Shown here in pieces: positions 3 to 18,824 of a stretch of DNA of 37,703 nucleotides. The notes beneath the pieces were generated by a model that saw nothing but the letters and a program-made list of their open reading frames with translations, did not search any database and was not told the origin of the DNA. Source of the stretch: a bacterium (lineage in GTDB: Bacteria; Patescibacteriota; Minisyncoccia; Phycocordibacterales; Phycocordibacteraceae); contig JAJYCP010000004.1 in NCBI GenBank assembly GCA_021778295.1, positions 1-37,703 of the forward strand, read 5' to 3'. Position 1 is the stretch's first letter, and the number at the start of each line of letters is the position of its first letter. A program made the position numbers and the translations under genes.

Positions 3-407
3 GAAGGCACTGCCCTTCACATACACCAGCATCTCGATTTGCGTATCAATGGCAGTCCCGTTGCCGTTCCCGCGGGAATCGGAATAGACGAATCGGCCGG
101 GTTTATCTCGCCCGTTCACACGCACGACACCAGCGGCATCATCCATGTCGAATCGGACACCATCCGTAACTTCACGCTCGGAGAATTCTTCGACATCTGG
201 GGCGTGCGCTTTACAAAAGATTCTATCGGCGGCTATACGGCTTCCGCGACGACTACGCTCGCCGTCTATGCGAATGGTTCGCTTGTGACGGGCGATCCCC
301 GCAATCTCGTGCTTACCGAACACCAGGAAATCGTCATCGAGTATGGTACGAACAAAGAAATGCTTAAAACCGTACCCACGTCGTACACTTTCCCTCCCGG
401 TTATTAA
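3..407 (+). CDS. 5'-truncated conserved hypothetical protein with His-rich putative metal-binding motifs
   Basis: The frame is open from the window edge (EGTALHIHQHLDLRING...PVHTHDTSGIIHVES); stop TAA 405..407. Confidence 0.75.
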   Translation, partial: EGTALHIHQHLDLRINGSPVAVPAGIGIDESAGFISPVHTHDTSGIIHVESDTIRNFTLGEFFDIWGVRFTKDSIGGYTASATTTLAVYANGSLVTGDPRNLVLTEHQEIVIEYGTNKEMLKTVPTSYTFPPGY

Positions 408-620
408 AACCCACCTCAAACTCCCGCTCGGGTATGCGACAGAAAGGAGTACGCCGTCTTTTTGTGCTCTAAAAGCGGCTCGTACTCGTTCCCGTTACCA
501 CAGAGAGTACTTCCAAGTTTCTAATTCGCTTCGCTCATAAGAAACTTTAAGTCGCGCACTCCGTAAGCCTCTTTCTGCCGCATACCCCTCGCGGGGAGGC
601 GGGGGTTGAGGTGGGTTCTA
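405..620. mobile_element. Palindromic MITE/REP-like non-coding element, copy 1
   Basis: Terminal IR TAAAACCCACCTCAA / TTGAGGTGGGTTCTA; inner IR 430..446 / 571..587; core roughly 90% identical to 16351..16568; the left TA overlaps the upstream stop codon. Confidence 0.75.
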
Positions 621-652
621 GTGAAATATTTCCGCGCGGCGCGTGTATATCA

Positions 653-680
653 TATAATGGAAGACGGCGATACTTGGAGG
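653..680 (+). promoter_or_regulatory. -10 box TATAAT (653..658) and Shine-Dalgarno GGAGG (676..680)
   Basis: Consensus matches upstream of ATG 687. Confidence 0.55.
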
Positions 681-686
681 ACGAAC

Positions 687-1079
687 ATGCTAAACCCTAG
701 CCATAAAGACCGGCCTGAGATTTGGTTTCGGCCGAGTCCGAAAGTGCCCCTGGCAGTTCTTTCGGAGCTCATTGCCAATAAACGTGTCACGGCTACCCCT
801 CGCTTTGGTGCCCGAAACGGCGACCATCCGAAGGGCTACACGCGGGGAGGGATTGCGGTGCTTCGCGTATTTGATGATACGAATACCGAACATCTGAATC
901 GCACTGTACGCATTGAGACGATTGTCGTTTCGCCACTCCGGCAATTGACACCGATCGATCTGCGCAACACTCTCTCGTACAAAAACTGGAAGGAGGTGCA
1001 ACGCGAACTTTCTTTTTTCGAGAAACGCCCTGTAGGAGGCGACGAGGACGCGAGTATCATTGAGTTCTCATACCTTTAA
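687..1079 (+). CDS. ASCH/PUA-like domain protein (130 aa)
   Basis: ELIANKRVTATPR resembles the ASCH I..GxKxxTxR motif; VRIETIVVSPLRQLTPIDL and terminal SIIEFSY fit the ASCH pattern; GGAGG precedes ATG 687. Confidence 0.6.
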   Translation: MLNPSHKDRPEIWFRPSPKVPLAVLSELIANKRVTATPRFGARNGDHPKGYTRGGIAVLRVFDDTNTEHLNRTVRIETIVVSPLRQLTPIDLRNTLSYKNWKEVQRELSFFEKRPVGGDEDASIIEFSYL

Positions 1080-1096
1080 CCGACGTGGAGTACGAC

Positions 1097-2116
1097 ATGA
1101 CAATTAACGGCTTGCTACGTGAAGGGATTCTGAAGATTGCTTCGCTTCCTCCCGAAAATTGGCGGGACATCGACATCGAGGATGCGACGTCTCTCACCGT
1201 GCCGTTGATTGCCGAAGATTATCCGGCAAAAACGGCACTCATGTGGAATGCGGCATATGCGAAGTTCATGATGCCGGATCATAACAGCATGATGGTAGCC
1301 GACCCAAAGCACATCGTCCGCATCATGCAGGTGTTTCGAAGTGATGAACGGTATCGCGGCGGAGGCGCAGGTATCGGATTCAAGGAGGCGGTTATATCGT
1401 GTCTCGATGACATAACGCCTCTCGCCAAAGCGATGGGCGCCGTCAATATCATCAAAAAGATGCCTGATGGCAGCCTGGCCGGCGATAACACCGACGGTAC
1501 CGGCTATGTGCAAAGTCTTGAGAAAGAGTTTGCACTGCAGGGTCGAGAACTAAAAGGAGCGCAGGTACTCATACTCGGCGCTGGCGGTTCGGGGCGAGCG
1601 ATTTCTTTCGCTCTTGCGCAAAAGGGCGCGCGACTTATCATTTTGAATCGGACCGAGAAGAAAGCCGAAGAACTCGCGGAAGCTCTGAACACATACGAGG
1701 GATCGGCCATAGCGACGGGAGGAGGACGAGCGTTCATCCCCGAAGTGCTCCCCTCGCAAGATGCGGTGATTTCGGTTGTTGACGATGCACAGTCCCCGCT
1801 TGATGAGTACTCAGCCCTTGGCGACATGGAGTTTCCGGTGACACCGGACTCTATCAGGGAAAATCTTGACCGGACAGCGATGCTCTTTCGCAGGACAAAA
1901 CCGAATCTGATCGTCTCGGACATTCGCATCCGCAAAATGGAAACACCGATGCTCGCAGAGGCGCGGCGACAAGGAAAGCCGGTCCTTGACGGGATCCCCA
2001 TGGTGGTGAACCAAGGAGTCGCGGCATTCTGGTGGCTCTATCAGGAGGAGCTCGTAGGGCGCAGTATCGCGCGTGCAGATGTTGAGGACGTGATGCGGCG
2101 TGCCGTCGGAATGTAA
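1097..2116 (+). CDS. Shikimate dehydrogenase superfamily oxidoreductase with divergent substrate pocket
   Basis: GAVNII, GDNTDG, LGAGGSGRA, LNRTEKKA and GIPMVVNQG motifs; GGAG precedes ATG 1097 (alternative start GTG 1085). Confidence 0.85.
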   Translation: MTINGLLREGILKIASLPPENWRDIDIEDATSLTVPLIAEDYPAKTALMWNAAYAKFMMPDHNSMMVADPKHIVRIMQVFRSDERYRGGGAGIGFKEAVISCLDDITPLAKAMGAVNIIKKMPDGSLAGDNTDGTGYVQSLEKEFALQGRELKGAQVLILGAGGSGRAISFALAQKGARLIILNRTEKKAEELAEALNTYEGSAIATGGGRAFIPEVLPSQDAVISVVDDAQSPLDEYSALGDMEFPVTPDSIRENLDRTAMLFRRTKPNLIVSDIRIRKMETPMLAEARRQGKPVLDGIPMVVNQGVAAFWWLYQEELVGRSIARADVEDVMRRAVGM

Positions 2117-2143
2117 ACTGGACAGAATCTTCAATCGAATAAC

Positions 2144-2177
2144 AGAGCCCGCTTGGATAACCTCGCGGGCTCTTTTT
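2144..2177 (+). terminator. Intrinsic terminator
   Basis: AGAGCCCGC / GCGGGCTCT stem followed by a T tract, between convergent genes. Confidence 0.7.
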
Positions 2178-2211
2178 ATTCAACCGTGGAAGCGCAACTC
2201 TGCCATGTCCC

Positions 2212-2820
2212 TTAGAGTCGCACGGTGCGGAGTCGAGGGAAAATCTCAATCAGCAATTCATCTCCGTTCTCGTCTTTTATTGGGCCGAAAATAATGCGCA
2301 CGAACGGTACCTTGCTGTGCGCGCAAAAGTCCGCAAGCGCCTGCCAGTTAGGCGTGTGCACTTGCGGGGCAAGATTGATCGGAAGGTAGAGGCTCAGGTA
2401 CTGCGATGGTGTATAGCCTTTCGCGAAAATCTTTCCCAATTCTTGGGTAATGGTGCTATCGAAATCCCCGTTGAACTGACGGTCGGTGATCCGCTTCATC
2501 TGAAATACGTCACCGCTGACGCTGTCACGGAGAGTGGCACTGGAGTCAGCGGCATCGATGATCACAAAATCAACATCTGTGTTATCCTTGCGGAATTTCT
2601 TAATGGCACCGTTTTTGGAGATGGACCCCGAATTCAACTGCCGAAGTCCTTCTTGGGTGACAGGAATACCGATCAAAAACGGCTTCTTGAATTCCTTTTC
2701 GTAGAGCCGTTTAATCCTCACCGCCTCCGAAAGTTCGGTATCGCGGCTATCGCGACCCATTCCAAAATTGCGGAGATAATCAGCAATTTCTTCCTCGGTG
2801 CAGTAGACGAAATTTTCCAT
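2212..2820 (-). CDS. Hypothetical protein, possible PD-(D/E)xK nuclease fold
   Basis: 202-aa ORF; helix with E (TELSEA), then DVDFVII and FQMKR (D...QxK-like spacing). Confidence 0.55.
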   Translation of the reverse strand: MENFVYCTEEEIADYLRNFGMGRDSRDTELSEAVRIKRLYEKEFKKPFLIGIPVTQEGLRQLNSGSISKNGAIKKFRKDNTDVDFVIIDAADSSATLRDSVSGDVFQMKRITDRQFNGDFDSTITQELGKIFAKGYTPSQYLSLYLPINLAPQVHTPNWQALADFCAHSKVPFVRIIFGPIKDENGDELLIEIFPRLRTVRL

Positions 2821-2886
2821 AAGATGTTTGTGGGTCGCTACGAAGTTCCGAGTTCACTGAAACATATCTATACAAAGTTGTCAATG

Positions 2887-2972
2887 CGGAGGCGGTGAGA
2901 TTCGAACTCACGATACCTTGCGGTATACCGGTTTTCGAAACCGGCGCACTAGACCAACTATGCGACGCCTCC
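2887..2972 (-). tRNA. tRNA-Ser(CGA)
   Basis: Cloverleaf with GGAGGCG/CGCCTCC acceptor stem, loop TTCGAAA, long variable arm, TTCGAAT T-loop; CCA not encoded. Confidence 0.95.
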
Positions 2973-3023
2973 TGTGCTCGCCATCCTAGCATTTCATGCT
3001 GAAAATGATAAGGTTTCGATAAC

Positions 3024-3095
3024 GGCCCTATCGTCTAACGGTTAGGACAGCGCCCTTTCACGGCGTAAATCGGGGTTCGATTCCCCGTGGGGTCA
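3024..3095 (+). tRNA. tRNA-Glu(TTC)
   Basis: GGCCCTA/TGGGGTC acceptor stem, anticodon loop CTTTCAC, GGTTCGATTCC; CCA not encoded. Confidence 0.95.
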
Positions 3096-3213
3096 CAGAG
3101 TGAAATTTCGGCAGGTGTGAACGAAGAAATGGTGCGCGCTCGGTATCGCCATTCAAATATAAGTCAACGAGCGCATCGAGCTTTCGCTCGATCTCCTTTC
3201 GATTGGTTTTCAT
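3096..3213 (-). pseudogene. Possible relic of a large serine recombinase reading into tRNA-Glu
   Basis: Peptide KEIERKLDALVDLYLNGDTER resembles the coiled-coil segment of large serine integrases; the frame continues antisense through the tRNA (VTPRGIEPRFTP*). Confidence 0.45.
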
Positions 3214-3241
3214 CCGTTCGACGGATAGTATACTTGGCGAG

Positions 3242-5617
3242 ATGACCCAGGAGGAGCAGTCGCGAACAGGGCCTACCAATACTGAAGTACTTGCTTCGTC
3301 TGTTGGATTACAAAGTGATTCGATTGAACGGCTTCGTGCACAATATGGATATAATGAAGTCCCCGCGCATCGCGAGAATCTGGTGCTCTTGTATCTGAAG
3401 AACTTTTGGGGACCGTTGCCATGGGTCCTGGAAGTTACCATATTCATCACCTTTTTTATCGGGAAACAAGCAGAGGCCATTGCCATCATAGTTCTGTTCT
3501 TTATCAATGCGGGGATTAATATCTACCAACACCAATCAGCCGACGCAGCGCTCGAGCTACTACGAAAGAAGATCCAGATGTTCGCACGCGCGAAACGTGA
3601 TAACACGTGGGTAACATTGCCGGTACGAGAACTCTTGCCGGGAGACGTCGTCCATCTTCAGATGGGAGATATTGTGCCTGCAGACCTCATTATCAAAGAA
3701 GGGTCACTGAGTGTTGACTTCTCAATGCTTACAGGCGAATCGCTTCCCAAGGAGGTTGGGGCCGGCGAGGAGATCTTTTCAGGGGGAATCATCCGACGCG
3801 GCGAAACGGCTGCGCTCGTCGAGCGAATAGGTGCCAATACTCGTTTTGGCAAAACGACAGAGCTGCTTGAGACCTCGCATGCGCCAACACATATAGAACG
3901 CGTTATTTTCTCTGTTATAGAGTATTTCTTTTTCTTGAATATCGGGCTTATTGCGATCATAGCGACTTTCGGAATCTGGGCGCACGCGCCAAGCGGGCAA
4001 ATACTGAACTTCGTCGTCGTGCTTCTCTTAATGTCGGTCCCTGTCGCCTTTCCCGTGATGTTCGCGGTCGCGCAGAGTTATGGGGCACTGCAGCTGGGAG
4101 AGAGGGGTAGAGTAAAAGTCCTGGTCCGGCGGCTAGCTGCGGTACAGGACGGAGCGATGATGGACGTGTTGTGCAGTGATAAAACCGGAACGCTTACGAC
4201 AAATCACCTGAGTATAAACGAAGTGACTCGGTACGGGGCGGCAGACCAGACAAGAGTGCTCACGCTTGCCGGAATCTGTAGTGATAAGGCTGATAACAGC
4301 ACCATCGATGATGCGATTTTTGAGCGCATAGCGAGAGAAAATATAACACTTCCTGCGCGGGAGCATTTCGAGCCGTTCGATTCGATCTCAAAACGGACCC
4401 GAGCAGAGTTTATAGGAGAACATGGAGAGCTCGAAAAGATCAGCATGGGGTTGCCTGAGGCATTGCTTTCAAACGATGTCGCATACGCACCTGAAGCCCT
4501 ACAGGATGAAGAACGCTTTGCAGCAAAAGGGTTTCGCGTCCTCGCCCTCGTTTCTGAAGGGACGGCAGGAAAACGATGCGAGGGGTTGATCGCGCTGTCG
4601 GATCCGGTACGACCGGATGCGGCCCAACTTATACGAGACCTTCTTGCTGCCGGGATAAGGACCATCATGATCACGGGTGACGGACGAAGAACCGCACGGA
4701 CCGTTGCCGCTGAATTGGGTCTTACCGGAGATGTGTGTACGCCGAAAGACCTGCACCTCGATCCGAGTATTGCCTTGCGGGCGAGCGTCTTTGCGGAAGC
4801 ATATCCGGAAGACAAGATCTCCATCATTAAAGCGCTACAGAAAGCAGGTCATGTCGTTGGCATGACGGGCGACGGAGTCAACGACGCGCCCGCGCTTCAA
4901 CAAGCAGAAAATGGTATTGCGGTTGAGAGTGCAGTCGATGTGGCTAAGCAGTCAGCGAGTTTCATTCTTACTACCCCGGGGTTGGAAGGAATACTGCAGA
5001 TGGTGATAGTGAGTCGAGAAGTGTACTTCCGCTTGCGCACGTGGACACTGAATAAAATCGTAAAATCCATTGAAGTCATTATCTTCACTACCGGCATATT
5101 TTTTATAACTCGTTCGTATATACTCTCGCCTCTTTTTGCAGTGTTGTTGCTCTTTGCTAATGATTTCATTTCCATCTCCCTCGCGACGGATCGGACGGGA
5201 GTCATCGCTCGGCCCGTGCACTGGAATGTTGGGAGACTTATCCTGGGCTCAAGCATATTCGCGATGGCCCCGCTTCTGAGTCTGGTGCTCATCTACAGCA
5301 CCGTCCATCTCTTTACCGGGTATTCATTTAGTACATTACGAACCGTGACCTATGTTTCCCTTGTCTTCTATGGGATAACGACGTTACTGGCAATCAGAGC
5401 ATGGCCGAGCGGGTTTAGTGTGCGTCCAAGCAAAACACTCCTCTTAGCTATCCTTTTCTCGTTCGTATTTACCTCCACCATAGCGCTGTCAGGCTTCCTC
5501 ATTACCCCCTTGTCCTGGCCGGTTATGATGCTGATCATCGGAACGGCAATCCTGAACTTCTTTATCATTGAGCTCATAAAGCGATTCGTCGTGGTACGCA
5601 AACTCATCGGCATATAG
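3242..5617 (+). CDS. P-type ATPase, probably type IIIA (plasma-membrane H+-exporting)
   Basis: TGES, DKTGTLT, MITGD and GDGVNDAPAL motifs; SVPVAFP in TM4 and LLFANDF...LATD in TM6 resemble P3A pumps. Confidence 0.9.
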   Translation: MTQEEQSRTGPTNTEVLASSVGLQSDSIERLRAQYGYNEVPAHRENLVLLYLKNFWGPLPWVLEVTIFITFFIGKQAEAIAIIVLFFINAGINIYQHQSADAALELLRKKIQMFARAKRDNTWVTLPVRELLPGDVVHLQMGDIVPADLIIKEGSLSVDFSMLTGESLPKEVGAGEEIFSGGIIRRGETAALVERIGANTRFGKTTELLETSHAPTHIERVIFSVIEYFFFLNIGLIAIIATFGIWAHAPSGQILNFVVVLLLMSVPVAFPVMFAVAQSYGALQLGERGRVKVLVRRLAAVQDGAMMDVLCSDKTGTLTTNHLSINEVTRYGAADQTRVLTLAGICSDKADNSTIDDAIFERIARENITLPAREHFEPFDSISKRTRAEFIGEHGELEKISMGLPEALLSNDVAYAPEALQDEERFAAKGFRVLALVSEGTAGKRCEGLIALSDPVRPDAAQLIRDLLAAGIRTIMITGDGRRTARTVAAELGLTGDVCTPKDLHLDPSIALRASVFAEAYPEDKISIIKALQKAGHVVGMTGDGVNDAPALQQAENGIAVESAVDVAKQSASFILTTPGLEGILQMVIVSREVYFRLRTWTLNKIVKSIEVIIFTTGIFFITRSYILSPLFAVLLLFANDFISISLATDRTGVIARPVHWNVGRLILGSSIFAMAPLLSLVLIYSTVHLFTGYSFSTLRTVTYVSLVFYGITTLLAIRAWPSGFSVRPSKTLLLAILFSFVFTSTIALSGFLITPLSWPVMMLIIGTAILNFFIIELIKRFVVVRKLIGI

Positions 5618-5659
5618 GTTTGATTTGAGACGATAGCGGCGTGCCTATGTTAGCATCCT

Positions 5660-7075
5660 ATGATGCAGACCTTGTTCGCGATAGTTCTGAGTGGCTCTCT
5701 CGCCACCTTTTCTTTTTTCGGCCATTCACTCCAGCCGATTATTACTTTTGTGGACGAACACTTGCCATCGTCATTTGGGGATGGCATGGGTGGAAACGAT
5801 GAGAATGCACCCGTGCCAGCGGCCACTTCAACAACACCCGCCGAAACGCAGCAGCAGCCGCAGAACATGACGGCGCTCGGCAGGTACAACGTACTCATTG
5901 CCGATCGGGGAAACAATCGAGTCATTGAAGTGACGCCTGACAAGAGAATAGTGTGGGAATACAACTTTGCACATCTGAAAAAAGGTTTTGGCGCCGACGA
6001 TGCATTCTTTGCCGACAACGGGAATACCGTCATGATGAGCCTTGAAAATTACAATCTCATCGAACAGGTCGACTATGCGACCCAAAAGATAGAGTGGCAG
6101 TACGGCACTCCGGGCGTCGCGGGGTTTCGCGCCGGACGTCTCCATACTCCCGATGATGCCTACAAGTTAGCGAATGGGGATGTTGTTGTGGCGGATATAC
6201 AGAATTGCCGCGTCATTGAGATTTCTCCGGAAGGAAAGATTGTCCGGCAATACGGGGTTACCAGACGTTGCGGGACCGCTCCCGGACTTCTCGATTCCCC
6301 CAATGGCGACACGCCGCTTCCAAATGGCGGCCTGCTCATAAGCGAAATCAAACCGCACGATATTGTCGAACTTAATAAAAACTGGAAGGAAATCGCGAGG
6401 TATCCCCTTCCAATCACCTACCCCTCCGATCCGCAACCGATGCAAAACGGCGATATTCTTGTTGCCAACTACCGCAACCCGGGTGCGCTCATCGAACTAA
6501 ATCCGTCGACGGGGAAAGTCGTGTGGCAATTTTCATATACAAGCGGCGACCGGCGCCTCAACAGACCGTCGCTCGCCATCGAAATGCCAAACGGCATCAT
6601 CCTTTGCAATGATGACTTGAATCACCGCGTCATCGCCATCGATAAAAATACGAACCAGATTGTCTGGCAGTACGGGGTAACCGGCAAACCCGGAGATGGT
6701 CCCGGTCAATTGAACATTCCCGACGGGATTTCCATAATCATGCGTGCGCCAAAAACAACATCAACGCCGCAGTCTTTGCACATGCCGGTATACACCATCG
6801 GTTATGTCATGCGCCATGCCGCTTATTTCTCCAACACAATGGTCGAGATGCACGGGTATGTCTTGAAGGATAACGGAGCCTACAGCATCGTATCGGATGA
6901 AAAGAACGGGGCCGTAACTGCGGGTGACCTGCCCATCGCGAGTACCGCGCTCGAAAAGCTTGCTCCGAGGACATCCTATCTTTTCAGAGGGACATTGGTG
7001 AAAGGCGGTCTTACGGCTTCAAACAGAAATCCGTACCATCTTGAACTGGCGAATGATCCTGTTCCGTATCCTTAG
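5660..7075 (+). CDS. Exported beta-propeller protein (NHL/PQQ/arylsulfotransferase-like repeats) with a small C-terminal domain
   Basis: N-terminal hydrophobic segment; repeated LIAD.GNNRVIEV..D..IVWQY blades; the start may be ATG 5663. Confidence 0.75.
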   Translation: MMQTLFAIVLSGSLATFSFFGHSLQPIITFVDEHLPSSFGDGMGGNDENAPVPAATSTTPAETQQQPQNMTALGRYNVLIADRGNNRVIEVTPDKRIVWEYNFAHLKKGFGADDAFFADNGNTVMMSLENYNLIEQVDYATQKIEWQYGTPGVAGFRAGRLHTPDDAYKLANGDVVVADIQNCRVIEISPEGKIVRQYGVTRRCGTAPGLLDSPNGDTPLPNGGLLISEIKPHDIVELNKNWKEIARYPLPITYPSDPQPMQNGDILVANYRNPGALIELNPSTGKVVWQFSYTSGDRRLNRPSLAIEMPNGIILCNDDLNHRVIAIDKNTNQIVWQYGVTGKPGDGPGQLNIPDGISIIMRAPKTTSTPQSLHMPVYTIGYVMRHAAYFSNTMVEMHGYVLKDNGAYSIVSDEKNGAVTAGDLPIASTALEKLAPRTSYLFRGTLVKGGLTASNRNPYHLELANDPVPYP

Positions 7076-7131
7076 ATCGTTGCCCGCGTGCGCCTTTAGA
7101 TTGGAGATGCTCTGTGGTAAAGTACCCGCAC

Positions 7132-7207
7132 GCGCGGTTAGCTCAGTTGGTAGAGCATCTCATTGACGTTGAGAGGGTCAGGGGTTCGAGTCCCTTACCG
7201 CGCACCA
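7132..7207 (+). tRNA. tRNA-Val(GAC)
   Basis: GCGCGGT/ACCGCGC stem, loop TTGACGT, encoded CCA 7205..7207. Confidence 0.95.
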
Positions 7208-8035
7208 ATGCGGCCGAAACAACACGTCGGGAAATCTTATCGAGCTGGTTCTGCCAGAGGAAAAAACTCGTCTGCCGGAAAGGTATACATGTACGGCAAA
7301 CATGCTCTCATGGAGGCGCTCGCTGAAGGCGCCTTGCCGACCGGTACACAAGCGAAAGTCATTCGCAAGGTATTCCTCGCAGCTGATATGCGGGACGGAG
7401 AATTGCAGGCACTTTTAAAAAAGCACGCAATTGCGACGGCGACACTCGCCGCCGGCAAGGACAAAGAGCTCGTTGGAAGAGATGCGGCACATCAGGGCGT
7501 TATTGCGCTCATGGACCCGTCTGCCCTTTTTGTGCCCTTTGATGACTTTGTAGCGTCACTCGACCTGAAGAAAAATCCGGCGATAGCCATCCTCGGCGAG
7601 GTGCAGGACCCGCACAATGTCGGTGCCATTATCCGCTCCGCTGCTGCCTTCGGCCTCGCCGGCGTTTTTATTCCCGAACACAATCAAGCGCCCATCACCG
7701 GCGCGGTCGTAAAGGCATCAAGCGGCATGGTGTTCCGTGTCCCGCTCGTTTCCATAGGCAATGTAAACACTACGCTCAAGACGCTTAAAGAAAAGGGCTT
7801 TTGGGTCTACGGGCTCGCAATGATGGGAACGACGACGCTCGGTACGGAAGCATTCGATGCGCCAAGCGTATTTGTCATCGGGAACGAAGGCGCGGGAGTT
7901 CGAGAAAAAACGCTCGCCGCGTGTGATGTCACACTCTCAATCCCTATGCACCGGCGGACCGAATCATTGAACGCCGCCGTCTCCGCCGCGGTCGTCTTCT
8001 ACGAGTGGTCGAGGAAACATCCGGAAGCGTTATGA
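7208..8035 (+). CDS. rlmB: SpoU/TrmH-family RNA 2'-O-methyltransferase (RlmB-like)
   Basis: YGKHALMEAL, HQGVIA, VQDPHNVGAIIRSAAAFG, IGNEGAG and ESLNAAVS motifs. Confidence 0.88.
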   Translation: MRPKQHVGKSYRAGSARGKNSSAGKVYMYGKHALMEALAEGALPTGTQAKVIRKVFLAADMRDGELQALLKKHAIATATLAAGKDKELVGRDAAHQGVIALMDPSALFVPFDDFVASLDLKKNPAIAILGEVQDPHNVGAIIRSAAAFGLAGVFIPEHNQAPITGAVVKASSGMVFRVPLVSIGNVNTTLKTLKEKGFWVYGLAMMGTTTLGTEAFDAPSVFVIGNEGAGVREKTLAACDVTLSIPMHRRTESLNAAVSAAVVFYEWSRKHPEAL

Positions 8036-8907
8036 CGAAAAAATTAAATTGCGATCAGCACCTCCTTTCCCTTCCCTGGAGCGACTACGAACTTCTCGAT
8101 TCCGGCGATTCCATGAAGCTTGAGCGCTTCGGCGCTATCGTCGTCGCCCGCCCCGAAACACAAGCGCTCTGGAAAAAAGAGCGGCCCGAGCTTTGGGAGA
8201 AGGCGGACGCCGTGTTCGCGTTCCACGAGAAAAAGGGCGCGTGGGATATCAAGAAGTCCGTGCCCGAGTCCTGGGAACTCTCGTGGGGTCCTACGCGCTT
8301 CTCTGCACGCCTTACCGGCTTCAAACACACCGGCGTGTTTCCGGAACAAGAACCGAACTGGCTCTGGTCAAGAACACAGATCGAGAAGATCGAGAGGCCG
8401 AACATTCTGAATTTATTCGGATACACCGGCATCGCTTCTCTGGTCGCGGCGGGCGCAGGTGCATTCGTCACGCACGTCGACGCCTCGAAGCAGTCGCTTG
8501 ACTGGGCGTGCACAAACGCACGGCTCTCGAATATTCCCGAGGATAAAATTCGCTGGGTACTTGACGACGCCCTCGCGTTTGCAAAGCGTGAAGCGCGACG
8601 CGGCGCTTCCTACGATGGCATCATTCTCGATCCGCCTGCGTTTGGCCGCGGCGCAAAAGGCGAAGTCTGGAAGATAGAAGAAGATCTTCCGATCCTGCTT
8701 GAAACGCTGAAAGACCTGCTTTCAGACAAGCCCGGTTCTTTCTTCCTTATAAACGGCTATGCCGCCGGCTATGCGCCGCGCTCTTTTGCGCAGGCTCTCG
8801 AGAGCGTTTTCGGCAATGTACAGGGGGAATGCGGTGAATTGCATATCCAGGAGACGCAGTCGAAGCGCGTTATCCCTTCCGGTATCTACGTACGTTTCGT
8901 GCGGTAA
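8032..8907 (+). CDS. Class I SAM-dependent methyltransferase (RlmI/RlmK-like)
   Basis: YELLDSG..KLERFG, HTGVFPEQ, LNLFGYTG, HVDASK and ILDPPAFGRG motifs; ATGA overlap with the upstream gene. Confidence 0.85.
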   Translation: MTKKLNCDQHLLSLPWSDYELLDSGDSMKLERFGAIVVARPETQALWKKERPELWEKADAVFAFHEKKGAWDIKKSVPESWELSWGPTRFSARLTGFKHTGVFPEQEPNWLWSRTQIEKIERPNILNLFGYTGIASLVAAGAGAFVTHVDASKQSLDWACTNARLSNIPEDKIRWVLDDALAFAKREARRGASYDGIILDPPAFGRGAKGEVWKIEEDLPILLETLKDLLSDKPGSFFLINGYAAGYAPRSFAQALESVFGNVQGECGELHIQETQSKRVIPSGIYVRFVR

Positions 8908-8916
8908 ACTGTCTCT

Positions 8917-9780
8917 ATGCACCACCAGCAGACCGTCATCCTCTATCACGGCAAATGCCCCGACGGTTTCGGCGGTGCCTATGCGGCATGGAAGAAGTTC
9001 GGCGACGCGGCTGAATACATTCCTATGCAGTATGGCAAGCCGATTCCGGAGCACATGGCCGGCCGCGATATCTACTTCATTGATTTCTGCTATGACCGAG
9101 AACGCATGAATCAGCTCGTGTCCATTGCTAAATCAATTACCGTGCTTGACCATCACGAAGGTGTCCGGGAAGTCGCAACTGCCTTCCCGGGAGTCTTTGA
9201 CCCGAGTCGTTCCGGTGCGGCCATCGCGTGGGAATATTTTCATCCGAATGTCCCGGGGCCTTTTCTTTTTGAATACATTGAAGATTATGATCTCTATCGT
9301 TTTTCGCTCCCCGACACGAAAGCGCTGAATGCCTACCTCACGCTCGAACCGTACGAATTCGAGCGCTGGGATGAGATCGTTTCCTCTCTTGAGGATCCGG
9401 AGCGGCGAGCCAAGATTATTGAACGGGGGAGAATATACGCTGAACATACCGATGCCCTCATTCAGCACATCGCCGCAAGCGCGGATTTGGTTGAGTTCGA
9501 AGGCCACACCTGTTACCTCTCGGGTACCGTACTCCAGGCGTTCACTGACTATCTCGGACATGAGCTTGCAAGAAAACAGCCGCCCTTTGCGCTCATGGTG
9601 CGTCCGGCTGCGGATGGGTTGCGCGTTTCTCTGCGGAGCGTCGATGATTTCGACGTCGCAGTGCTTGCGCGCAAATACGGCGGTAACGGACACCCGGCTG
9701 CTGCGGCATTTCGCATACCGTGGGGCGATCCGATTCCCTGGAAGCCGGTCGAGAAAAAAGATGAAGATCCTCGCGATTGA
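8917..9780 (+). CDS. DHH/DHHA1-family phosphoesterase (nanoRNase-like)
   Basis: YHGKCPDG, IDF, LDHH and GGNGHPAAA motifs. Confidence 0.85.
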   Translation: MHHQQTVILYHGKCPDGFGGAYAAWKKFGDAAEYIPMQYGKPIPEHMAGRDIYFIDFCYDRERMNQLVSIAKSITVLDHHEGVREVATAFPGVFDPSRSGAAIAWEYFHPNVPGPFLFEYIEDYDLYRFSLPDTKALNAYLTLEPYEFERWDEIVSSLEDPERRAKIIERGRIYAEHTDALIQHIAASADLVEFEGHTCYLSGTVLQAFTDYLGHELARKQPPFALMVRPAADGLRVSLRSVDDFDVAVLARKYGGNGHPAAAAFRIPWGDPIPWKPVEKKDEDPRD

Positions 9781-10963
9781 AACGAGCTGCGACGAGACGG
9801 CAATCGCCATACTAAAAGCCGAGGGCGATGAGAAGGCGGCGCAGTTCACCGTACTCGGGAACGCGCTCCTCTCGCAGATAGATATTCATCGGGAATACGG
9901 CGGCGTCTTCCCCGCTCTCGCCAAGCGCGAACACGCAAAGAATCTCGTGCCGATTCTCGAGGCGGCGCTTGAGGAAGCGGAACTCCTGCATGAAGATACG
10001 CAGGCGATACCGGAAGAAACGCGCGCCAAAATTTCAGAAATTTTGGCGCGCGAGAGCGGCCTCGCCGAAGCGTTTTTCGAATTCGTCGGCGAGTGCGAGC
10101 CGCCGCCCATTGACGCCATTGCGGTCACGTCGGGCCCCGGGCTTGAGCCGGCGCTCTGGGTCGGTATCAATTTCGCCAAAGCGCTTGCGCTTCTCTGGGA
10201 GAAACCGCTCGTCGCGGTCAATCATATGGAGGGGCATATTTTCACCGCACTTGCGGCAGAAAAGCGTCTGCAGGATGCGGAAGGCACTCCTCTGCATATC
10301 AAGGATGTTTCCATGCCGGTGCTTGCGCTCCTTATCTCAGGTGGACATACGGAACTTGTCGTCATGAAAAAGTGGCTCGAGTACGAACTCGTCGGGCAGA
10401 CGCGCGACGATGCGGTCGGCGAAGCGTTCGACAAAGTCGCTCGCATGCTCTCCCTCCCCTACCCGGGCGGGCCGGAGATATCGCGTCTTGCCGAATCTCT
10501 TCGTTCCTCACTTGGCGGTTTCACCGCCAAGTACTCGTTGCCACGACCGATGCTCAACGACGCGACGTGCGACTTTTCCTTTTCAGGATTGAAAACCGCC
10601 GTACTGTATCTCTTGAAGAAAAACCCCGCGATGAGCGAGCACGAGAAACAGCATCTCGCCCACGAATTCGAGAATGCGGTGACCGAAGTCCTCTGGGAAA
10701 AGACGTCGCGCGCGCTTGAAAAAACGCGGGCAAAAACACTCACTCTAGGCGGCGGCGTCTCGGCAAACAAACATATCCGCCGCACTTTTACGGAAAAAAT
10801 AAAAAACGAATATCCTGATGTGACGCTCCGCATCCCTTCCGCCGCACTCACCACCGACAACGCCATCATGATCGCGCTTGCCGGCTTCTATCGCACGCTC
10901 CGGGGCGACTTCCCCGGATTGGATGCCCTATCGGCAAACGGCAACCGTACGCTCGCCCCGTGA
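9761..10963 (+). CDS. tsaD: tRNA N6-threonylcarbamoyladenosine transferase TsaD
   Basis: ILAIETSCDET, VNHMEGH, SGGHT, TRDDAVGEAFDK, FSFSGLKT and TDNAIMIA motifs; overlaps the DHH gene by 20 nt. Confidence 0.95.
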   Translation: MKILAIETSCDETAIAILKAEGDEKAAQFTVLGNALLSQIDIHREYGGVFPALAKREHAKNLVPILEAALEEAELLHEDTQAIPEETRAKISEILARESGLAEAFFEFVGECEPPPIDAIAVTSGPGLEPALWVGINFAKALALLWEKPLVAVNHMEGHIFTALAAEKRLQDAEGTPLHIKDVSMPVLALLISGGHTELVVMKKWLEYELVGQTRDDAVGEAFDKVARMLSLPYPGGPEISRLAESLRSSLGGFTAKYSLPRPMLNDATCDFSFSGLKTAVLYLLKKNPAMSEHEKQHLAHEFENAVTEVLWEKTSRALEKTRAKTLTLGGGVSANKHIRRTFTEKIKNEYPDVTLRIPSAALTTDNAIMIALAGFYRTLRGDFPGLDALSANGNRTLAP

Positions 10964-11030
10964 GATACCCGCAGAGGTCTTCCTCGCGAGACGAGCAGAT
11001 CCGCCTTATTTTTGCTATATTTTACAGGCA

Positions 11031-13154
11031 ATGCCCGATAAGTTCTTAATCCCGTACGATCCGACCGCAACCGAAAAACGCTTGTATGAAGCGTGGGAAG
11101 CGAGCGGCTTTTTTAATCCGGACAACCTGCCGGACGACGGGAAGCCTTTTACCATCGTCATGCCGCCTCCGAACGCGAATGGATCGCTTCATGCCGGACA
11201 CGCACTTTTCATTACGCTTGAAGACATACTGATCCGTTTCAAGCGCATGCAGGGATATAAAGCGCTCTGGCTCCCCGGCGCCGACCATGCAGGCTTCGAG
11301 ACGCAGGTGGTATACGAGAAGAAGCTTGAAAAGGAAGGCCGCTCGCGCTTCCAGATGGAAGCGAAGGATCTCTATAACGAGATTTACGCGTTTACCCTAT
11401 CGAATAAAGCGCACATGGAGGGACAAATACGGCGGATGGGCGCTTCATGCGACTGGTCGCGCGAGAAATTCACGCTTGACGAGGCGGTCGTGCGCGAAGT
11501 GCAAAAAACATTTCTAAAAATGTTTGCGGACAATCTTGTCTATCGCGGGAACCGAATCGTGAATTGGTGTCCGAAACATCAGACATCGCTCTCGGACGTC
11601 GAGACGACGAGCATCGAAGAGACCGCGCCGCTTTACTATTTCAAATACGGGCCGTTTACCATCGCGACGGCGAGGCCGGAAACGAAATTCGGCGATAAGT
11701 ACGTCGTCATGCACCCGGATGATACGCGGTATGCGCAGTGGAAAGAGGGCGACACTCTCGAGGTGGAGTGGATTAACGGGCCTATTACCGCAACCGTCAT
11801 TAAAGACACCGCGATCGATATGGAATTCGGCACGGGCGTCATGACCATCACGCCCTGGCACGATGCGATCGACTTCGAAATCGCAAAACGACATGCGCTT
11901 CCGTACGAGCAGATCATCGACTGGCGGGGCAAGCTGCTCCCGGTCGCCGGAGAATTCGCCGGCATGAAGATACTCGATGCGCGTCCGAAGATCGTCGAAA
12001 AACTCGCGGCAAAAGGCCTGGTCGAAAAAATAGACGAGGCGTATCGGCATGTCGCAAAGCATTGTTACAAATGCAACGCATTTATCGAACCGCATGTACG
12101 AGATCAATGGTTCGTGAAGATGGCCCCGCTCGCACAGATGGCAATTGAAGCGGTAAATGCCGGCAGCGTACGGTTTGTTCCCGATAATTATGAGAAGATA
12201 TTCCGCTACTGGATGGAGAATACGCTTGACTGGAATATTTCACGGCAGATCGTATGGGGAATTCCCATTCCGGCATGGTTTCGCCATCGCGGCACCGCCA
12301 CCGAGGAGTCGGTCGTGTCACTTGAAAAACCGGAGGGCGAAGGATGGGAGCCGGACACCGATACGTTTGATACCTGGTTCTCCTCCGGACAATGGCCGCT
12401 CATTATGACGGGATTCCCGGACGGAAAGGATTACGCGACCTATTACCCTACGGATGTCATGGAAACCGGGCACGATCTTATCTTTAAATGGGTGCCGCGC
12501 ATGGTTATTTTCGGTCTGTATCTCGGGAAGAAGGTCCCGTTCCATACCGTTTACCTTCACGGACTCGTAAACGATTCTCAGGGGAAAAAGATGAGCAAGT
12601 CAAAAGGAAACGTCGTGAATCCACTCGATCTTACGGATAGATACGGGACTGATGCATTGCGTATGGCGCTTGTCGTCGGCAACACTCCCGGCACCAACCT
12701 TGCGCTTTCTGAAGACAAGGTACGGGGCTACAAACATTTTGCGAACAAGCTCTGGAACATCGCGCGCTTCGTGTTGGAGCATACGGGCGAAGCGGATATG
12801 AAGACACCGCTTGCGGCACCCGACGCGGCGCTGCGCAAAAAAGCGGAAGACCTCCTCGCGGAAGTAACGAAGGACATCGAGGAGTATCGCATCTACCTAG
12901 CGGCCGAAAAACTCTATCACTACGTTTGGCATGAGTTTGCCGACAAGATACTCGAGGACTCCAAAGAGATCCTCCAAAGCTCCGATGACGAAGCGAAAGC
13001 ATCGCGACGAGCGTTCCTCGTCCATACGCTTGACGCATTCCTGCGTGCGCTCCATCCTTTCATGCCCTTTCTCACCGAAGAAATCTGGCAATCCATGCCG
13101 ACTAAAGACGCCGAGTTCCTCATGGTGGCACACTGGCCCGAAACGACAGGGTGA
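11031..13154 (+). CDS. valS: Valine--tRNA ligase (short form, 707 aa)
   Basis: PPPNANGSLHAGH, GADHAG, DWNISRQIVWG, DTWFSS and KMSKSKGN motifs. Confidence 0.95.
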   Translation: MPDKFLIPYDPTATEKRLYEAWEASGFFNPDNLPDDGKPFTIVMPPPNANGSLHAGHALFITLEDILIRFKRMQGYKALWLPGADHAGFETQVVYEKKLEKEGRSRFQMEAKDLYNEIYAFTLSNKAHMEGQIRRMGASCDWSREKFTLDEAVVREVQKTFLKMFADNLVYRGNRIVNWCPKHQTSLSDVETTSIEETAPLYYFKYGPFTIATARPETKFGDKYVVMHPDDTRYAQWKEGDTLEVEWINGPITATVIKDTAIDMEFGTGVMTITPWHDAIDFEIAKRHALPYEQIIDWRGKLLPVAGEFAGMKILDARPKIVEKLAAKGLVEKIDEAYRHVAKHCYKCNAFIEPHVRDQWFVKMAPLAQMAIEAVNAGSVRFVPDNYEKIFRYWMENTLDWNISRQIVWGIPIPAWFRHRGTATEESVVSLEKPEGEGWEPDTDTFDTWFSSGQWPLIMTGFPDGKDYATYYPTDVMETGHDLIFKWVPRMVIFGLYLGKKVPFHTVYLHGLVNDSQGKKMSKSKGNVVNPLDLTDRYGTDALRMALVVGNTPGTNLALSEDKVRGYKHFANKLWNIARFVLEHTGEADMKTPLAAPDAALRKKAEDLLAEVTKDIEEYRIYLAAEKLYHYVWHEFADKILEDSKEILQSSDDEAKASRRAFLVHTLDAFLRALHPFMPFLTEEIWQSMPTKDAEFLMVAHWPETTG

Positions 13155-13171
13155 TGGGGTAGAATGGAACG

Positions 13172-13876
13172 GTGACCCTCACCACGCTCGGCTATGCGTT
13201 TCTCGGCGGACTTTTGCCGTCCCTCATCTGGCTCTATTTTCTTCTCAAGGAGGATGCGCGCTGTCCGGAACCGCGTACGCTGATAGCACTTGCGTTTGTC
13301 GCGGGTATGGCGGCAGTACCGCTTGCGCTCCCCTTGGAACAATACGCGCTGACGCACCTGACCGGTGCTCTTTCGATTTATGTCGCCTGGGCGACCATCG
13401 AGGAACTGCTCAAATACGGCATGGCGGCTTCGTTCATTCTTTGGCGCCGCGCAGTCGACGAGGCGCCTGATTATGTCATATATATGATTACCGTAGCGCT
13501 TGGCTTTGCGGCCGCGGAAAACATGCTTTTCCTCCTTGCCCCGCTCTCGGGCGGGCATTTCACCGCCGGTCTGCGCACTGACGACCTACGTTTTCTCGGA
13601 TCAACGTTACTGCACGTCATTGCCTCCGCAGCGATCGGTTTTGCGCTTGCCTTCTCCGCCGCGAAAGGTCCGGGGGTACGGGTTGTGGCAGCGGCATCCG
13701 GACTTATCCTCGCCATCGCGTTGCACACCGCCTTTAACATGCTTATCATAAACGGAGGCGCTTCGACCGCACTTGCCGCCTTCTTCCTTGTCTGGATGGT
13801 TGCAGTCGTTTTCTTCGCGGCATTCGAGGTGCTAAAATATTTTCAGTACCGTAACACCCCTAATAATACTTGCTAA
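13172..13876 (+). CDS. PrsW-family intramembrane glutamic/metalloprotease
   Basis: Multi-TM protein with EELLK, GFAAAEN and two conserved His. Confidence 0.85.
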   Translation: MTLTTLGYAFLGGLLPSLIWLYFLLKEDARCPEPRTLIALAFVAGMAAVPLALPLEQYALTHLTGALSIYVAWATIEELLKYGMAASFILWRRAVDEAPDYVIYMITVALGFAAAENMLFLLAPLSGGHFTAGLRTDDLRFLGSTLLHVIASAAIGFALAFSAAKGPGVRVVAAASGLILAIALHTAFNMLIINGGASTALAAFFLVWMVAVVFFAAFEVLKYFQYRNTPNNTC

Positions 13877-13879
13877 GAT

Positions 13880-14392
13880 ATGAACATGAAGCGTACGTTT
13901 TTTGAGCGTCTCTCCGGCGGCCCTCCGGTCGGGAATGATGCTTTCGATTCCTTTGATGATGAACTGCCCGGAGCGACGATACCGGCGCGCAAGGAGATAC
14001 GGATGCACACCAGCGGGGTATCGGCCGCTCCTTCGCCGCTTGATGACGATCGTCCGGAAGGGAAAGGGCAGCTTCCGGTCGACGTGCATCAGACTGCAAG
14101 CGATATCATCATCCGCGCCTTTGTCGCAGGCGTGCGTCCCGATGAACTCAATATTTCCATAAGCCGCGACATGGTTGAACTCGAGGGATCACGCATGGAA
14201 CGCGAGCAAGTCGCCGCTCCCGATTATTTCACCCGCGAGCTTTTTTGGGGCGCATTCTCGCGCACGATCCTCCTCCCGCAGGAAATAGACGTCGAAGCGT
14301 CCTCTGCGAGCGCCAAGGATGGCCTTTTGACCATTATTCTTCCGAAACTTGATAAAGCACGCCAAACGAAATTACGCGTAAAAGCCGGGTAG
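13880..14392 (+). CDS. Hsp20/alpha-crystallin small heat-shock protein
   Basis: LPVDVHQT, ELFWGAFSRTILLP and KDGLLTIILPK motifs; the start may be ATG 13886. Confidence 0.9.
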   Translation: MNMKRTFFERLSGGPPVGNDAFDSFDDELPGATIPARKEIRMHTSGVSAAPSPLDDDRPEGKGQLPVDVHQTASDIIIRAFVAGVRPDELNISISRDMVELEGSRMEREQVAAPDYFTRELFWGAFSRTILLPQEIDVEASSASAKDGLLTIILPKLDKARQTKLRVKAG

Positions 14393-14396
14393 GAGC

Positions 14397-15482: not shown

Positions 15483-15486
15483 GCGG

Positions 15487-15559
15487 TGCTTGGAGTCGGG
15501 CTCGAACCGACGACCCCCGCCTCTTCAGGGCGATGCTCTACCAACTGAGCTATCCAAGC
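15487..15559 (-). tRNA. tRNA-Phe(GAA)
   Basis: GCTTGGA/TCCAAGC stem, loop CTGAAGA; CCA not encoded. Confidence 0.95.
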
Positions 15560-15563
15560 GTTA

Positions 15564-15860
15564 TTAGAGGGCCGGCGACCCCGCTTTGAACGAGTTTATC
15601 AGCTTTTGGAGCTCAGCGGTAGTCGGGAGACCAAAAAGTCCGGAGGAGGTGGTGGTGCCGGGTGTTGCAGAAAATTTACTGACAATCGGCTGCAGATACT
15701 GCTGGTATAGGTAGAGCGGCAGAAGAAGCACGATGATCCAGATGATGATCTTCCCCACAAAACCGAACCATTGATCGCGTCGGATTGCGCGGAGTATGCG
15801 ATGGTTCTCTCTTGCAAGCGCATGCGTCTCTTCAAGCAGCCGTTTTAACTCCGGATCCAT
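15564..15860 (-). CDS. Small single-TM hypothetical protein
   Basis: 98 aa; coiled N-terminus (LLEETHALARENHRIL) and one TM helix; TGcTATACT just upstream. Confidence 0.7.
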   Translation of the reverse strand: MDPELKRLLEETHALARENHRILRAIRRDQWFGFVGKIIIWIIVLLLPLYLYQQYLQPIVSKFSATPGTTTSSGLFGLPTTAELQKLINSFKAGSPAL

Positions 15861-15896
15861 ACTGCTCTAGTATAGCAAGTGCTGATTGCCCATGTG

Positions 15897-15968
15897 TGCC
15901 CCCTCCAGGAGTCGAACCTGAATCAGCTCGTTAGGAGTGAGCCGTTCTATCCATTGAACTAAGGGGGC
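15897..15968 (-). tRNA. tRNA-Arg(CCT)
   Basis: GCCCCCT/AGGGGGC stem, loop CTCCTAA; CCA not encoded. Confidence 0.93.
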
Positions 15969-16029
15969 GATACGGAATGAGCGTAACACAACGCGCGCGG
16001 CAGAGCCGCGCGCGTTGTGTATTTGCACC

Positions 16030-16272: not shown

Positions 16273-16315
16273 ATTTATTTTTATTTCGTTATGGGAGCAA
16301 GTATACCATGCAAAG

Positions 16316-16324
16316 TTATCCACA
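16316..16324 (+). promoter_or_regulatory. Consensus DnaA box TTATCCACA in the glutaredoxin promoter region
   Basis: Exact match to TTATNCACA near a minus-strand TGgTATACT extended -10. Confidence 0.4.
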
Positions 16325-16350
16325 GAAATATCTGTGCCTCTCCCCACCCC

Positions 16351-16568
16351 TAGAACCCGTCTTAAGCCCCCGCGAGGCGTATGCGGCAGAAAGGAGTACG
16401 CCGTCTTTTTCTGCTCAAAAAGCGGCTCGCGCTCGCGCCGTTACCACAGAGGGTACTTCCACGTTTCTAACTCGCTCCGCTCATAAGAAACTTTAGGTCG
16501 CGCGCTCCGTAAGCCTCTTTCTGCCGCATACGCCTCGCGGGGGAGGTGGGGGGTTTGAAATGGTTTTA
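16351..16568. mobile_element. Palindromic MITE/REP-like non-coding element, copy 2
   Basis: Perfect 27-bp inner IR 16367..16393 / 16517..16543; ends TAGAACC... / ...GGTTTTA; homologous to 405..620. Confidence 0.75.
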
Positions 16569-18780: not shown

Positions 18781-18824
18781 TCCTTTCGTGCCACGCCCCT
18801 CGCGGGGGTTTGAGAAGGGTTCTA
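18781..18824. repeat. Solo end of the palindromic element
   Basis: The reverse complement of 18796..18824 matches 16351..16379 at 25/29 positions without gaps; similarity continues to GAAAGGA. Confidence 0.7.

Follow-up and report, generated by a model that had tools for sequence, protein, structure and literature searches.

A TA-bounded hairpin repeat carrying a nested second repeat in a Patescibacteria-type genome: probable copies of a MITE-like DNA transposon family

Introduction

This study describes a family of hairpin-forming repeats in a Patescibacteria-type bacterium, two copies of which lie in the window, the 37,703-nucleotide stretch of DNA analysed here, which is one contig (C7) of an assembly of 494,847 bases in 18 contigs (G000) with a completeness of 87%. 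The two repeats are probably copies of a MITE-like, non-autonomous DNA transposon family. The element inserts at a TA dinucleotide and duplicates it, and at two loci of this genome, those of RuvC and of an NDK-like protein, the native stop codon provides this TA. In the window the element is seen in its 217-bp form, which is a form of about 155 bp with a second, unrelated hairpin repeat of 57–59 bp in the loop of one of its tip hairpins (P3), and this nested module is mobile on its own account. The element is of a known kind in an unusual form and host, and the family is one for which no earlier description was found; full-text literature searches brought up no account of repeats of this sort from the candidate phyla radiation or Patescibacteria. 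The genomes of ultra-small bacteria that depend on a host are commonly portrayed as streamlined and poor in mobile elements. In this case, a single repeat family makes up about 1% of a 495-kb genome, interrupts the assembly at several contig ends and occupies the exact stop codons of housekeeping genes (those of RuvC, NusA, GyrA, NDK and a penicillin-binding protein).

Results and discussion

The copies in the window and the anatomy of the element

A first-pass annotation of the window, made from the sequence alone, had placed two fold-back repeats at 405–620 and 16351–16568, and both were recovered at exactly these positions (Table 1). Each copy starts and ends in TA, the flanks (TTA-element-TAG and CTA-element-TAG) are the YTAR contexts that had been described, and the left TA of copy 1 does overlap a stop codon, that of ORF 3–407. 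Copy 2 is bordered on one side by a terminator-like hairpin (16581–16612) and on the other by a minus-strand glutaredoxin-like gene, the 5' side of which faces the copy. When the two copies are aligned with their flanks, the mean column identity is 87%, and blastn gives 86–87% over about 200–222 bases; the frames that cross them are short ones only, overlapping other ORFs.

Table 1. Positions of the repeat copies, their parts and adjoining features in the window.
Feature	Position	Strand	Remarks
Copy 1, long form of the TA-bounded hairpin element	405..620	+	216 bp
TAA stop of ORF 3-407	405..407	+	Shares its TA with the left end of copy 1
Copy 1, left terminal inverted repeat	407..421	+	Family consensus GAACCCATTTCAAAC; CACC variant in copy 1
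Copy 1, right terminal inverted repeat and terminal TA (619-620)	605..620	+	
Copy 1, core: inner stem P1 and three-way-junction tip (P2 hairpin, loop UGCU; P3 hairpin)	429..587	+	Match of covariance model R1
Nested module in the P3 loop of copy 1	496..555	+	Unit ACCACA..GTCGC, conserved loop CTAATTCGCTTCGCTCATAAG; match of model R2 at 510-555
Copy 2, long form	16351..16568	+	218 bp
Copy 2, core	16376..16533	+	Match of model R1
Nested module in the P3 loop of copy 2	16443..16501	+	Match of model R2 at 16456-16501
Third, truncated copy: solo right arm	18781..18824	+	Ends in TTCTA; adjoins the start of a response-regulator gene (- strand)

The rod-like fold proposed for the repeats is borne out by copy 1, which folds far better than shuffled sequences on both strands, with -91.7 kcal/mol (z -6.4) on the plus strand and -102.7 kcal/mol (z -8.1) on the minus strand, and with 0 of 200 shuffles as good in either case. 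The consensus unit of the family is TA-GAACCCAyyTCAAAC ... GTTTGArrTGGGTTC-TA, in which the terminal inverted repeats of 15 bp are perfect (GAACCCATTTCAAAC and GTTTGAAATGGGTTC are exact reverse complements), and a TA is present at both ends in 14 of the 20 copies examined. From these ends, a stem of about 45 bp leads to a tip with two small hairpins; the 99-nt core is a three-way junction consisting of P1, then P2 (loop UGCU) and then P3 (loop GUCG).

The long and short forms of the element differ solely in the 57–59 bp inserted in the P3 loop. Other sites are also polymorphic, namely the closing pair of P2 (C-G or G-C), the junction (TAC/GTA or CTC/GAG) and the right arm, which occurs in two types. 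As read from the alignment, the module is found together with every variant of these sites, so that it was either gained and lost repeatedly at one spot or sequence was exchanged between copies.

The module forms a hairpin with a 17-nt loop within the conserved run CTAATTCGCTTCGCTCATAAG and with a variable stem, which was assigned by hand, RNAalifold having predicted no pairs owing to register shifts; in this assignment 86% of the stem cells are paired, and covariation is 0.36 versus 0.12 in shuffles. There are 12 copies of the module in this genome, three of them outside the main element, and model R2, which represents the module, has 1–17 matches per genome in 39 of 150 further genomes from the order and, counted by genus, is matched in 37 of 131 other genera. 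In one relative (G005) the module lies in the P2 loop of one copy of the element; elsewhere it occurs alone, and in G140 it forms head-to-tail arrays of 57 nt. A further genome (G017) has it in the rpsH-rplF spacer, which in 29 of 29 relatives is 5–45 bases long and without the module. The module consists of one hairpin and shows no clear duplication. The smaller hairpins that had been noticed within the two repeats include this separate, nested element.

A TIGR array was considered as an identity for the module and rejected: the flanks of its conserved loop pair with each other, in the 86% of cells given above, and its 57-nt units are dispersed. TIGR arrays, according to the part of the source that was available, are built of 36-nt units, each containing two 9-nt spacers without covariation, and adjoin a Nop-domain Tas gene (PMC12045711).

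The family in the genome

A blastn search of the genome revealed many further copies, amounting to 48–50 segments at about 30 loci, well above what chance would give; covariance model R1, built from 11 copies of this genome, has 28 matches in it. There are six complete long copies (214–218 bp), three long copies interrupted by contig ends, 16 short copies (about 130–158 bp; two end at contig ends and one is further deleted to 106 bp), two copies with the family tip but outer stems of their own, three odd copies with the inner module and three solo ends (that in the window, C14:17619 and C18:8943). Six copies lie at contig ends. About 25 copies share identical arms at unrelated sites. One lineage of the element has expanded in a burst to about 25 near-identical copies in this genome, and deletion forms, solo ends and contig breaks remain of it.

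A 17-base degenerate pattern of the ends, searched against genome contigs, gave only chance matches, spread over all phyla, among the matches listed, and the single match in Patescibacteria among them is not matched by R1. The element had no blastn match in phage and plasmid collections, and the P3 pattern was absent from viral contigs.

Insertion at stop codons

In 18 of 34 cases examined, an end of the element falls exactly on the stop codon of an ORF with at least 95 codons, compared with 6.7% of all TAR (TAA/TAG) sites (767/11,423). Half of these ORFs (9/18) carry a Pfam family, the families being RuvC, penicillin-binding transpeptidase, DEAD-box helicase, C39-like peptidase, trypsin-like protease, NusA, HhH-GPD glycosylase, NDK and GyrA. 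Counted by copy, 15 of 20 lie on a stop, where 12% (tolerated TA sites) or 25% (tolerated YTAR sites) would be expected, a count that omits copy 2, the ORF of which is an antisense frame over the glutaredoxin-like gene.

The sites before insertion could be reconstructed at two of these genes. At RuvC, 17 of 19 relatives end at the same residue and the element is present in 0 of 19; downstream, 15 of 19 read TAA TCC(A/C)CA, and this genome reads TA-element-TA-A TCCACAC. At the NDK-like gene, nine of 11 close orthologues have the same last residue and two end one codon later (by local alignment), with the element present in 0 of 11; the nearest orthologue continues TAG AAAAAG, versus TA-element-TA-G AAAAAAAG in this genome. 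Since excision of the element together with one TA restores the ancestral stop and the downstream bases at both loci, the TA was duplicated on insertion. A non-autonomous mobile element with TA duplication, as proposed in the first-pass annotation, is therefore supported by two rebuilt empty sites. It is these two loci that provide the evidence, and copies 1 and 2 have no syntenic relatives: within the genus, the gene downstream of copy 1 was found in seven of 100 genomes at only 43–48% identity and with a different upstream neighbour, and a metagenome search gave three loci at 61–72% identity, without the element and without synteny.

After insertion, the stop of the gene consists of TA and the first G of the element, and the old third base lies at the far end. 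As the element proper begins with G or A and ends with C or T, the gene keeps a stop codon in either orientation of the element.

Base pairing, orientation and transcription

Model R1 has 1–9 matches per genome in 52 of 100 other genomes of the genus. Among 150 further genomes from the order it is matched in 49, up to 21 times in a single genome, and counted by genus in 46 of 131 other genera. A tip found in about a third of the sampled genomes of the order points to an old and successful resident, which is named in no database. Conservation of the tip extends over both genus and order, in part as an artefact of a model that needs an intact tip and misses copies in which it has decayed, and the stems differ from copy to copy yet stay complementary. 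This is most pronounced in three relatives (G005, G106 and G067), in which the tip is common and each copy has its own perfect outer stem of 20–35 bp.

An alignment of 32 copies, drawn from 29 species, has standard pairs in 96.0% of its 1148 pair cells and double-sided change at 35 of 37 pairs; its covariation score is 0.80, versus 0.20 in shuffles (0 of 500 reach 0.80) and 0.10–0.15 in slid controls, all values from an alignment that was fitted to the model and so leans towards structure. The compensatory change noticed earlier between the two window copies (GGGTATGC/GCATACCC versus GCGTATGC/GCATACGC) is real and is one of the double-sided pairs found among 11 copies of this genome (12 of 37). 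The kind of pair, however, bears on how the stems are maintained. If selection acted on the RNA of one strand, G:U pairs should be tolerated much more readily than A:C. In the alignment of 32 copies, there are 1072 Watson–Crick pairs, 30 G:U pairs (19 of them at one conserved pair) and 14 A:C pairs, so that without the one conserved wobble G:U and A:C stand at 11 versus 14; in the order the counts are 337, 8 and 5. G:U being as rare as A:C, upkeep appears to take place at the DNA level or on both strands, and this Watson–Crick-only pairing is easier to reconcile with the upkeep of a palindrome at the DNA level than with selection acting on a single RNA strand. For imperfect inverted repeats, template switching from arm to arm has been reported, in the parts available of three sources, to create and maintain hairpins and to homogenize the arms (PMC8794818, PMC8604942, PMC13100816), and arm-to-arm DNA template switching is described in the available part of one of them as yielding the Watson–Crick compensation pattern without selection (PMC8794818).

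These observations were weighed against the possibility that the repeats are a structured RNA family, such as 3'-UTR stabilizers, terminator-like elements or small RNAs, the fold of which is selected at the RNA level with spread being secondary. A tip sequence kept across the genus and order while the stems covary is what such a family would show, but the rarity of G:U speaks against it, as do the minimum-free-energy folds of 20 copies, with 49 G:U pairs on the plus strand and 62 on the minus strand and hence no strand signal. The minus strand folds better than the plus strand in 19 of 20 copies, at least partly owing to one A:C site common to most copies. An unnamed family had been supposed, and Rfam is in agreement with this: at gathering thresholds the whole window returned RNase P RNA and six tRNAs only, with the element unmatched, and at E ≤ 10 positions 350–700 gave no match. 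Simple scans also found no promoter-like or terminator-like site inside copies 1 and 2.

The orientation of the copies is more favourable to a role in RNA. In this genome the copies lie mostly directly behind genes and mostly in one orientation, with left ends on a stop in 14 of 17 cases versus right ends in four of 17, and with 8 (left) versus 1 (right) among the Pfam-confirmed genes. Either end supplies an identical stop, so that an effect of the interior that depends on orientation is needed to account for the bias, and the one-way orientation behind genes lies beyond a symmetric view based on DNA alone. Copies of the relatives, however, occur in both orientations, and their bias is weak: of 29, eight have the left end only on a stop, five the right end only, four both and 12 neither, a crude count in which stem extension failed at bulges. 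Element orientation agreed with GC skew in 15 cases and disagreed in 15, GC skew being too weak here as a proxy for the direction of replication.

Parts of the window are contained in eight DNA runs and one metatranscriptome. In the contig data, DNA depth is about tenfold higher over the bins of the element, in line with its being a repeat. Contigs of the RNA library touch element bins, with 21 of 30 bins empty in this one metatranscriptome, which consists of contigs without strand, ends or level, and some copies may be transcribed. Among the contigs of three DNA runs and of the RNA run, presence and absence of copies between strains was not observed, as no joint passed over a complete copy; those that did occur, from 488 to 16504 with short inserts, derive from short-form copies elsewhere, and the result speaks neither for nor against polymorphism. 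The overlap of RNA contigs with the element is compatible with a structured RNA, but TA duplication, solo ends, deletion forms and nested insertions are the marks of mobile DNA, and taken together a family selected primarily as RNA seems quite unlikely. Of the earlier suggestion that the fold is under selection as RNA or single-stranded DNA, the overwhelming maintenance of pairing stands; selection is not established, with G:U as rare as A:C and the copies of relatives facing both ways.

A hot spot behind rpmE and hairpins at tRNA and tmRNA genes

The element recurs behind rpmE, on the same strand, in 12 of 89 rpmE-bearing genomes, counting a variant copy of this genome; in G005, G108, G056, G017, G070, G045, G083, G104, G106, G062 and G081 it starts 8–45 bases after the gene. 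This placement would also suit a structured RNA. Among 30 rpmE-prfA spacers that were inspected, with the tips counted by eye, seven hold the three-way tip, three a related tip with another nested hairpin, three a different tip, two or three other interiors with TAGAAC..GTTCTA-like ends and about six plain hairpins, and four are spacers of 0–21 bases. The long hairpins at this site have at least four different tips in different species, so that the site was struck repeatedly or the tips were replaced, vertical descent and repeated insertion being inseparable there. A second class of hairpin, with the conserved loop of the nested module, occurs behind tRNA and tmRNA genes, with a stem that consists of an inverted and a direct copy of the gene's own 3' end, the direct copy being at least 11 nt long in seven of 11 cases.

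Such hairpins raise the possibility that each target site is the source of the arms, which would be made from it or adopted there, either by entry of the tip into an existing hairpin or by inverted copying of the flank, with the identical arms of this genome as a special case. The unique perfect arms around a shared tip in the three relatives, the stems copied from tRNA and tmRNA genes, the varied tips between rpmE and prfA and the fact that the module does land in hairpin loops all lend themselves to this explanation. In this genome, however, about 25 copies bring the same arms to unrelated sites, and the empty sites at RuvC and the NDK-like gene contain no pre-existing hairpin or flank copy beyond the TA, which refutes it for this lineage. 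The arms near the tip are, moreover, alike between species (GATTTTTsGG), as from divergence and not from fresh synthesis. As a general account of the family, target-made arms are therefore most improbable.

The mobilizing enzyme

The first-pass annotation had reported no transposase in the window, and this statement can be extended to the genome for six families: DDE_3, DDE_Tnp_1, DDE_Tnp_4, rve, the TnpB zinc ribbon and IS110 gave no match in a six-frame search of the 87%-complete assembly. The link to the IS630 and IS5 families proposed at the same time is sustained as far as the TA duplication goes; the TA is the one feature that points to it, no such transposase was found in this search and DDE_3 is rare in the order, being present in five of 300 other genomes, compared with R1 in 49 of 150. 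No inverted repeats matching the element lie beside the two best DDE_3 genes of the relatives.

The genome does contain one Y1_Tnp gene (HUH/RAYT-like; contig C14, 236 aa), which suggests a different route, in which the element is a single-stranded DNA hairpin moved by an HUH/Y1 tyrosine transposase in the manner of REPIN/RAYT or IS200/IS605, and the TA is a cleavage or target dinucleotide rather than a duplication. Y1 genes occur in 54 of 100 genomes of the genus and overlap the carriers of R1 moderately, above chance (both 36, R1 only 16, Y1 only 18, neither 30), although the genomes are related and not independent. The lodging of the module in hairpin loops and the polymorphisms shared by long and short forms would fit the precise gain and loss that such an enzyme could bring about. 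Against this, the Y1 gene is flanked by its own A/T-only palindromes, which are unrelated to the element, and two genomes with nine and four copies (G106 and G043) have no Y1 match. Insertion of the IS200/IS605 type is not known to leave a duplication, whereas the element has true terminal inverted repeats and its empty sites require one TA before insertion and two after. In addition, a REPIN has a conserved stem and a variable loop, and the element is the reverse. Movement by an HUH/Y1 enzyme is accordingly judged to be very unlikely.

Proposed mechanism and implications

The reading of the repeats as a MITE-like family draws on the following findings. The elements are short, non-coding and multicopy, have terminal inverted repeats and show TA duplication against empty sites; an autonomous relative with the same ends was not found, either in the 87%-complete genome or at the DDE_3 genes of the relatives. 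Movement would be brought about by a transposase supplied in trans, and TA duplication by itself hints at a Tc1/mariner/IS630-like DDE enzyme. Stop codons may be favoured partly through the harmlessness of such insertions. The strictly Watson–Crick compensation may arise from homogenization of the arms at the DNA level, by template switching or arm-to-arm correction, and the conserved tip may be the part that is read by some protein, whether the mobilizing enzyme or a host factor.

Several observations weigh against the MITE reading, among them the failure to find a partner transposase, the one-way orientation behind genes in this genome and the possible transcription of some copies. In addition, the possession of its own arms by each copy in G005, G106 and G067 is unlike a classical MITE burst, and implies either long persistence in which both arms changed in concert or a different route to new arms. 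It is conceivable, albeit unlikely, that an order-wide hairpin replicator is centred functionally on the three-way tip rather than on the ends. An as yet unknown protein would read the extruded or single-stranded DNA hairpin, template switching would keep the stems perfect and might also lengthen them or rebuild them on the target, and related small hairpins would home both into the loops of other hairpins and to tRNA and tmRNA genes at their 3' ends. If true, such a tip-centred replicator would move in a way unlike that of either DDE MITEs or REPIN/RAYT systems.

With the repeats regarded as a probable MITE-like family, a model of the element will explain many 'orphan' intergenic hairpins and contig breaks in the annotation of such genomes. 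Stems that change fully and yet pair in Watson–Crick fashion only also advise caution in taking covariation as proof of RNA function, and the family offers a large natural data set, possibly a test bed for the template-switch repair of palindromes.

Comparison with known systems

The Correia elements of Neisseria (CREE/NEMIS) resemble the present element in being hairpin repeats of about 100–200 bp with terminal inverted repeats, many copies, internal-deletion forms, a gene-adjacent position and no known transposase of their own. They also duplicate a TA. No sequence relation is claimed, and the present element differs in its order-wide conserved three-way tip, its variable stems and its ultra-small Patescibacteria-type host. 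Correia elements carry promoters and an IHF site according to the available part of a MITE review (PMC10969869), whereas a simple scan found 0 promoter-like (sigma-70-like) sites in copies 1 and 2; the same part of the review describes the cleavage of Correia transcripts by RNase III at the inverted repeats and the inversion of elements (PMC10969869).

The MITEs of the IS630/Tc1-mariner type (Stowaway-like) share the TA duplication, the short inverted repeats, the small size and the lack of coding capacity, but the genome is without DDE_3, five of 300 genomes of the order have one, and no autonomous copy with the ends of the element was found. IS200/IS605-derived PATE elements, which have no inverted repeats at their ends, no duplication and separate subterminal hairpins, were rejected as an identity for the outer element, which has inverted repeats and TA duplication. 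ERIC and the Rickettsia palindromic elements (RPEs) are palindromes of about 125–150 bp in compact genomes, often at the 3' ends of genes (ERIC) or tolerated inside them (RPE), and in this they are similar. SPRITE-type elements, of the pneumococcal BOX/RUP/SPRITE group, insert into one another in the account given by the available part of the review (PMC10969869). The exact stop-codon TA, the fixed nesting site in the P3 loop and the order-wide three-way tip set the present element apart from ERIC, RPE, BOX, RUP and SPRITE, and are absent from the descriptions in that part of the review (PMC10969869); the terms 'Patescibacteria' and 'stop codon' do not occur in its text.

REPIN/RAYT systems are comparable in that their hairpin repeats persist for long in lineages, and a RAYT-like Y1 gene with REPs of its own is present in this genome. 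In REPINs, conserved 25-mers form the stem and the loop varies. In the element described here, by contrast, it is the tip that is conserved and the stems that vary, and the palindromes of the Y1 gene are of a different sequence.

Hairpins beside tRNA and tmRNA genes

In other genera of the order, hairpins were observed that carry the conserved loop of the nested module and lack its ACCACA head (loci L131–L141 and L041). At 11 of the 12 loci scanned, the hairpin lies downstream of a tRNA (eight) or tmRNA (three) gene and on the opposite strand, mostly at a distance of 117–151 bases; the outliers are one hairpin at 291 bases and one at 51 bases, the latter adjoining masked bases. At these sites, the three-way structure has a stem made up of an inverted and a direct copy of the 3' end of the tRNA or tmRNA gene in question, and the direct copy reaches 11 nt or more in seven of 11 cases. 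These hairpins are either a mini integrative element or structures whose stem is templated on the target. The window itself contains six tRNA genes, as well as a class A bacterial RNase P RNA.

Partial and adjoining copies, and stacked hairpin insertions

The solo right arm in the window is situated around 30 bases from a tRNA-Gly gene (18854–18926). On C18 of the source genome (G000), one element copy appears to have been inserted into or beside another, as is suggested by a truncated left arm that lies upstream of a complete copy at a distance of 5 bases. On C2, elements flank rpmE on both sides, with an old-type copy containing the nested module downstream and a long-form copy of the near-identical burst group upstream. 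In the relative G017, three unrelated hairpin insertions are stacked in the rpsH–rplF spacer (L143/L040) and occupy around 170 bases, whereas this spacer comprises 5–45 bases in 29 relatives. The nested module also occurs as a head-to-tail array of 57-nt units in another relative (G140).

Features in the window, the source genome and a relative
Feature	Location	Details
RNase P RNA, class A	window 25311-25675	130.7 bits
Solo right arm of truncated element copy	window 18781-18824	immediately upstream of response-regulator gene (- strand)
Truncated left arm and complete copy	G000 C18:8943-9144	
rpmE	G000 C2:6033-6278	- strand; within C2:5915-6542
Nested-module array	L118 = G140:C11:19300-19760	partly masked (N)
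Sister family	G000 C13:9711-9850; L176, L192, L199, L082, L083	own arms
Y1/HUH transposase-like gene	G000 C14:5800-6900 (L100)	236 aa; HFHLLV motif

Related and distinct systems

The tip of the sister family resembles that described by R1, the covariance model of the element core, which scored 48 bits on one member, and its P3 loop houses a different nested hairpin (GAATTTGC..GCAAAT). A/T-only palindromes, TTAAATGTTTAACATTTAA, lie on either side of the Y1/HUH transposase-like gene, and further copies of them are present at C14:10730 and C5:36417. Together, the gene and its palindromes look like a REP/RAYT-type system that is distinct from the element studied here.
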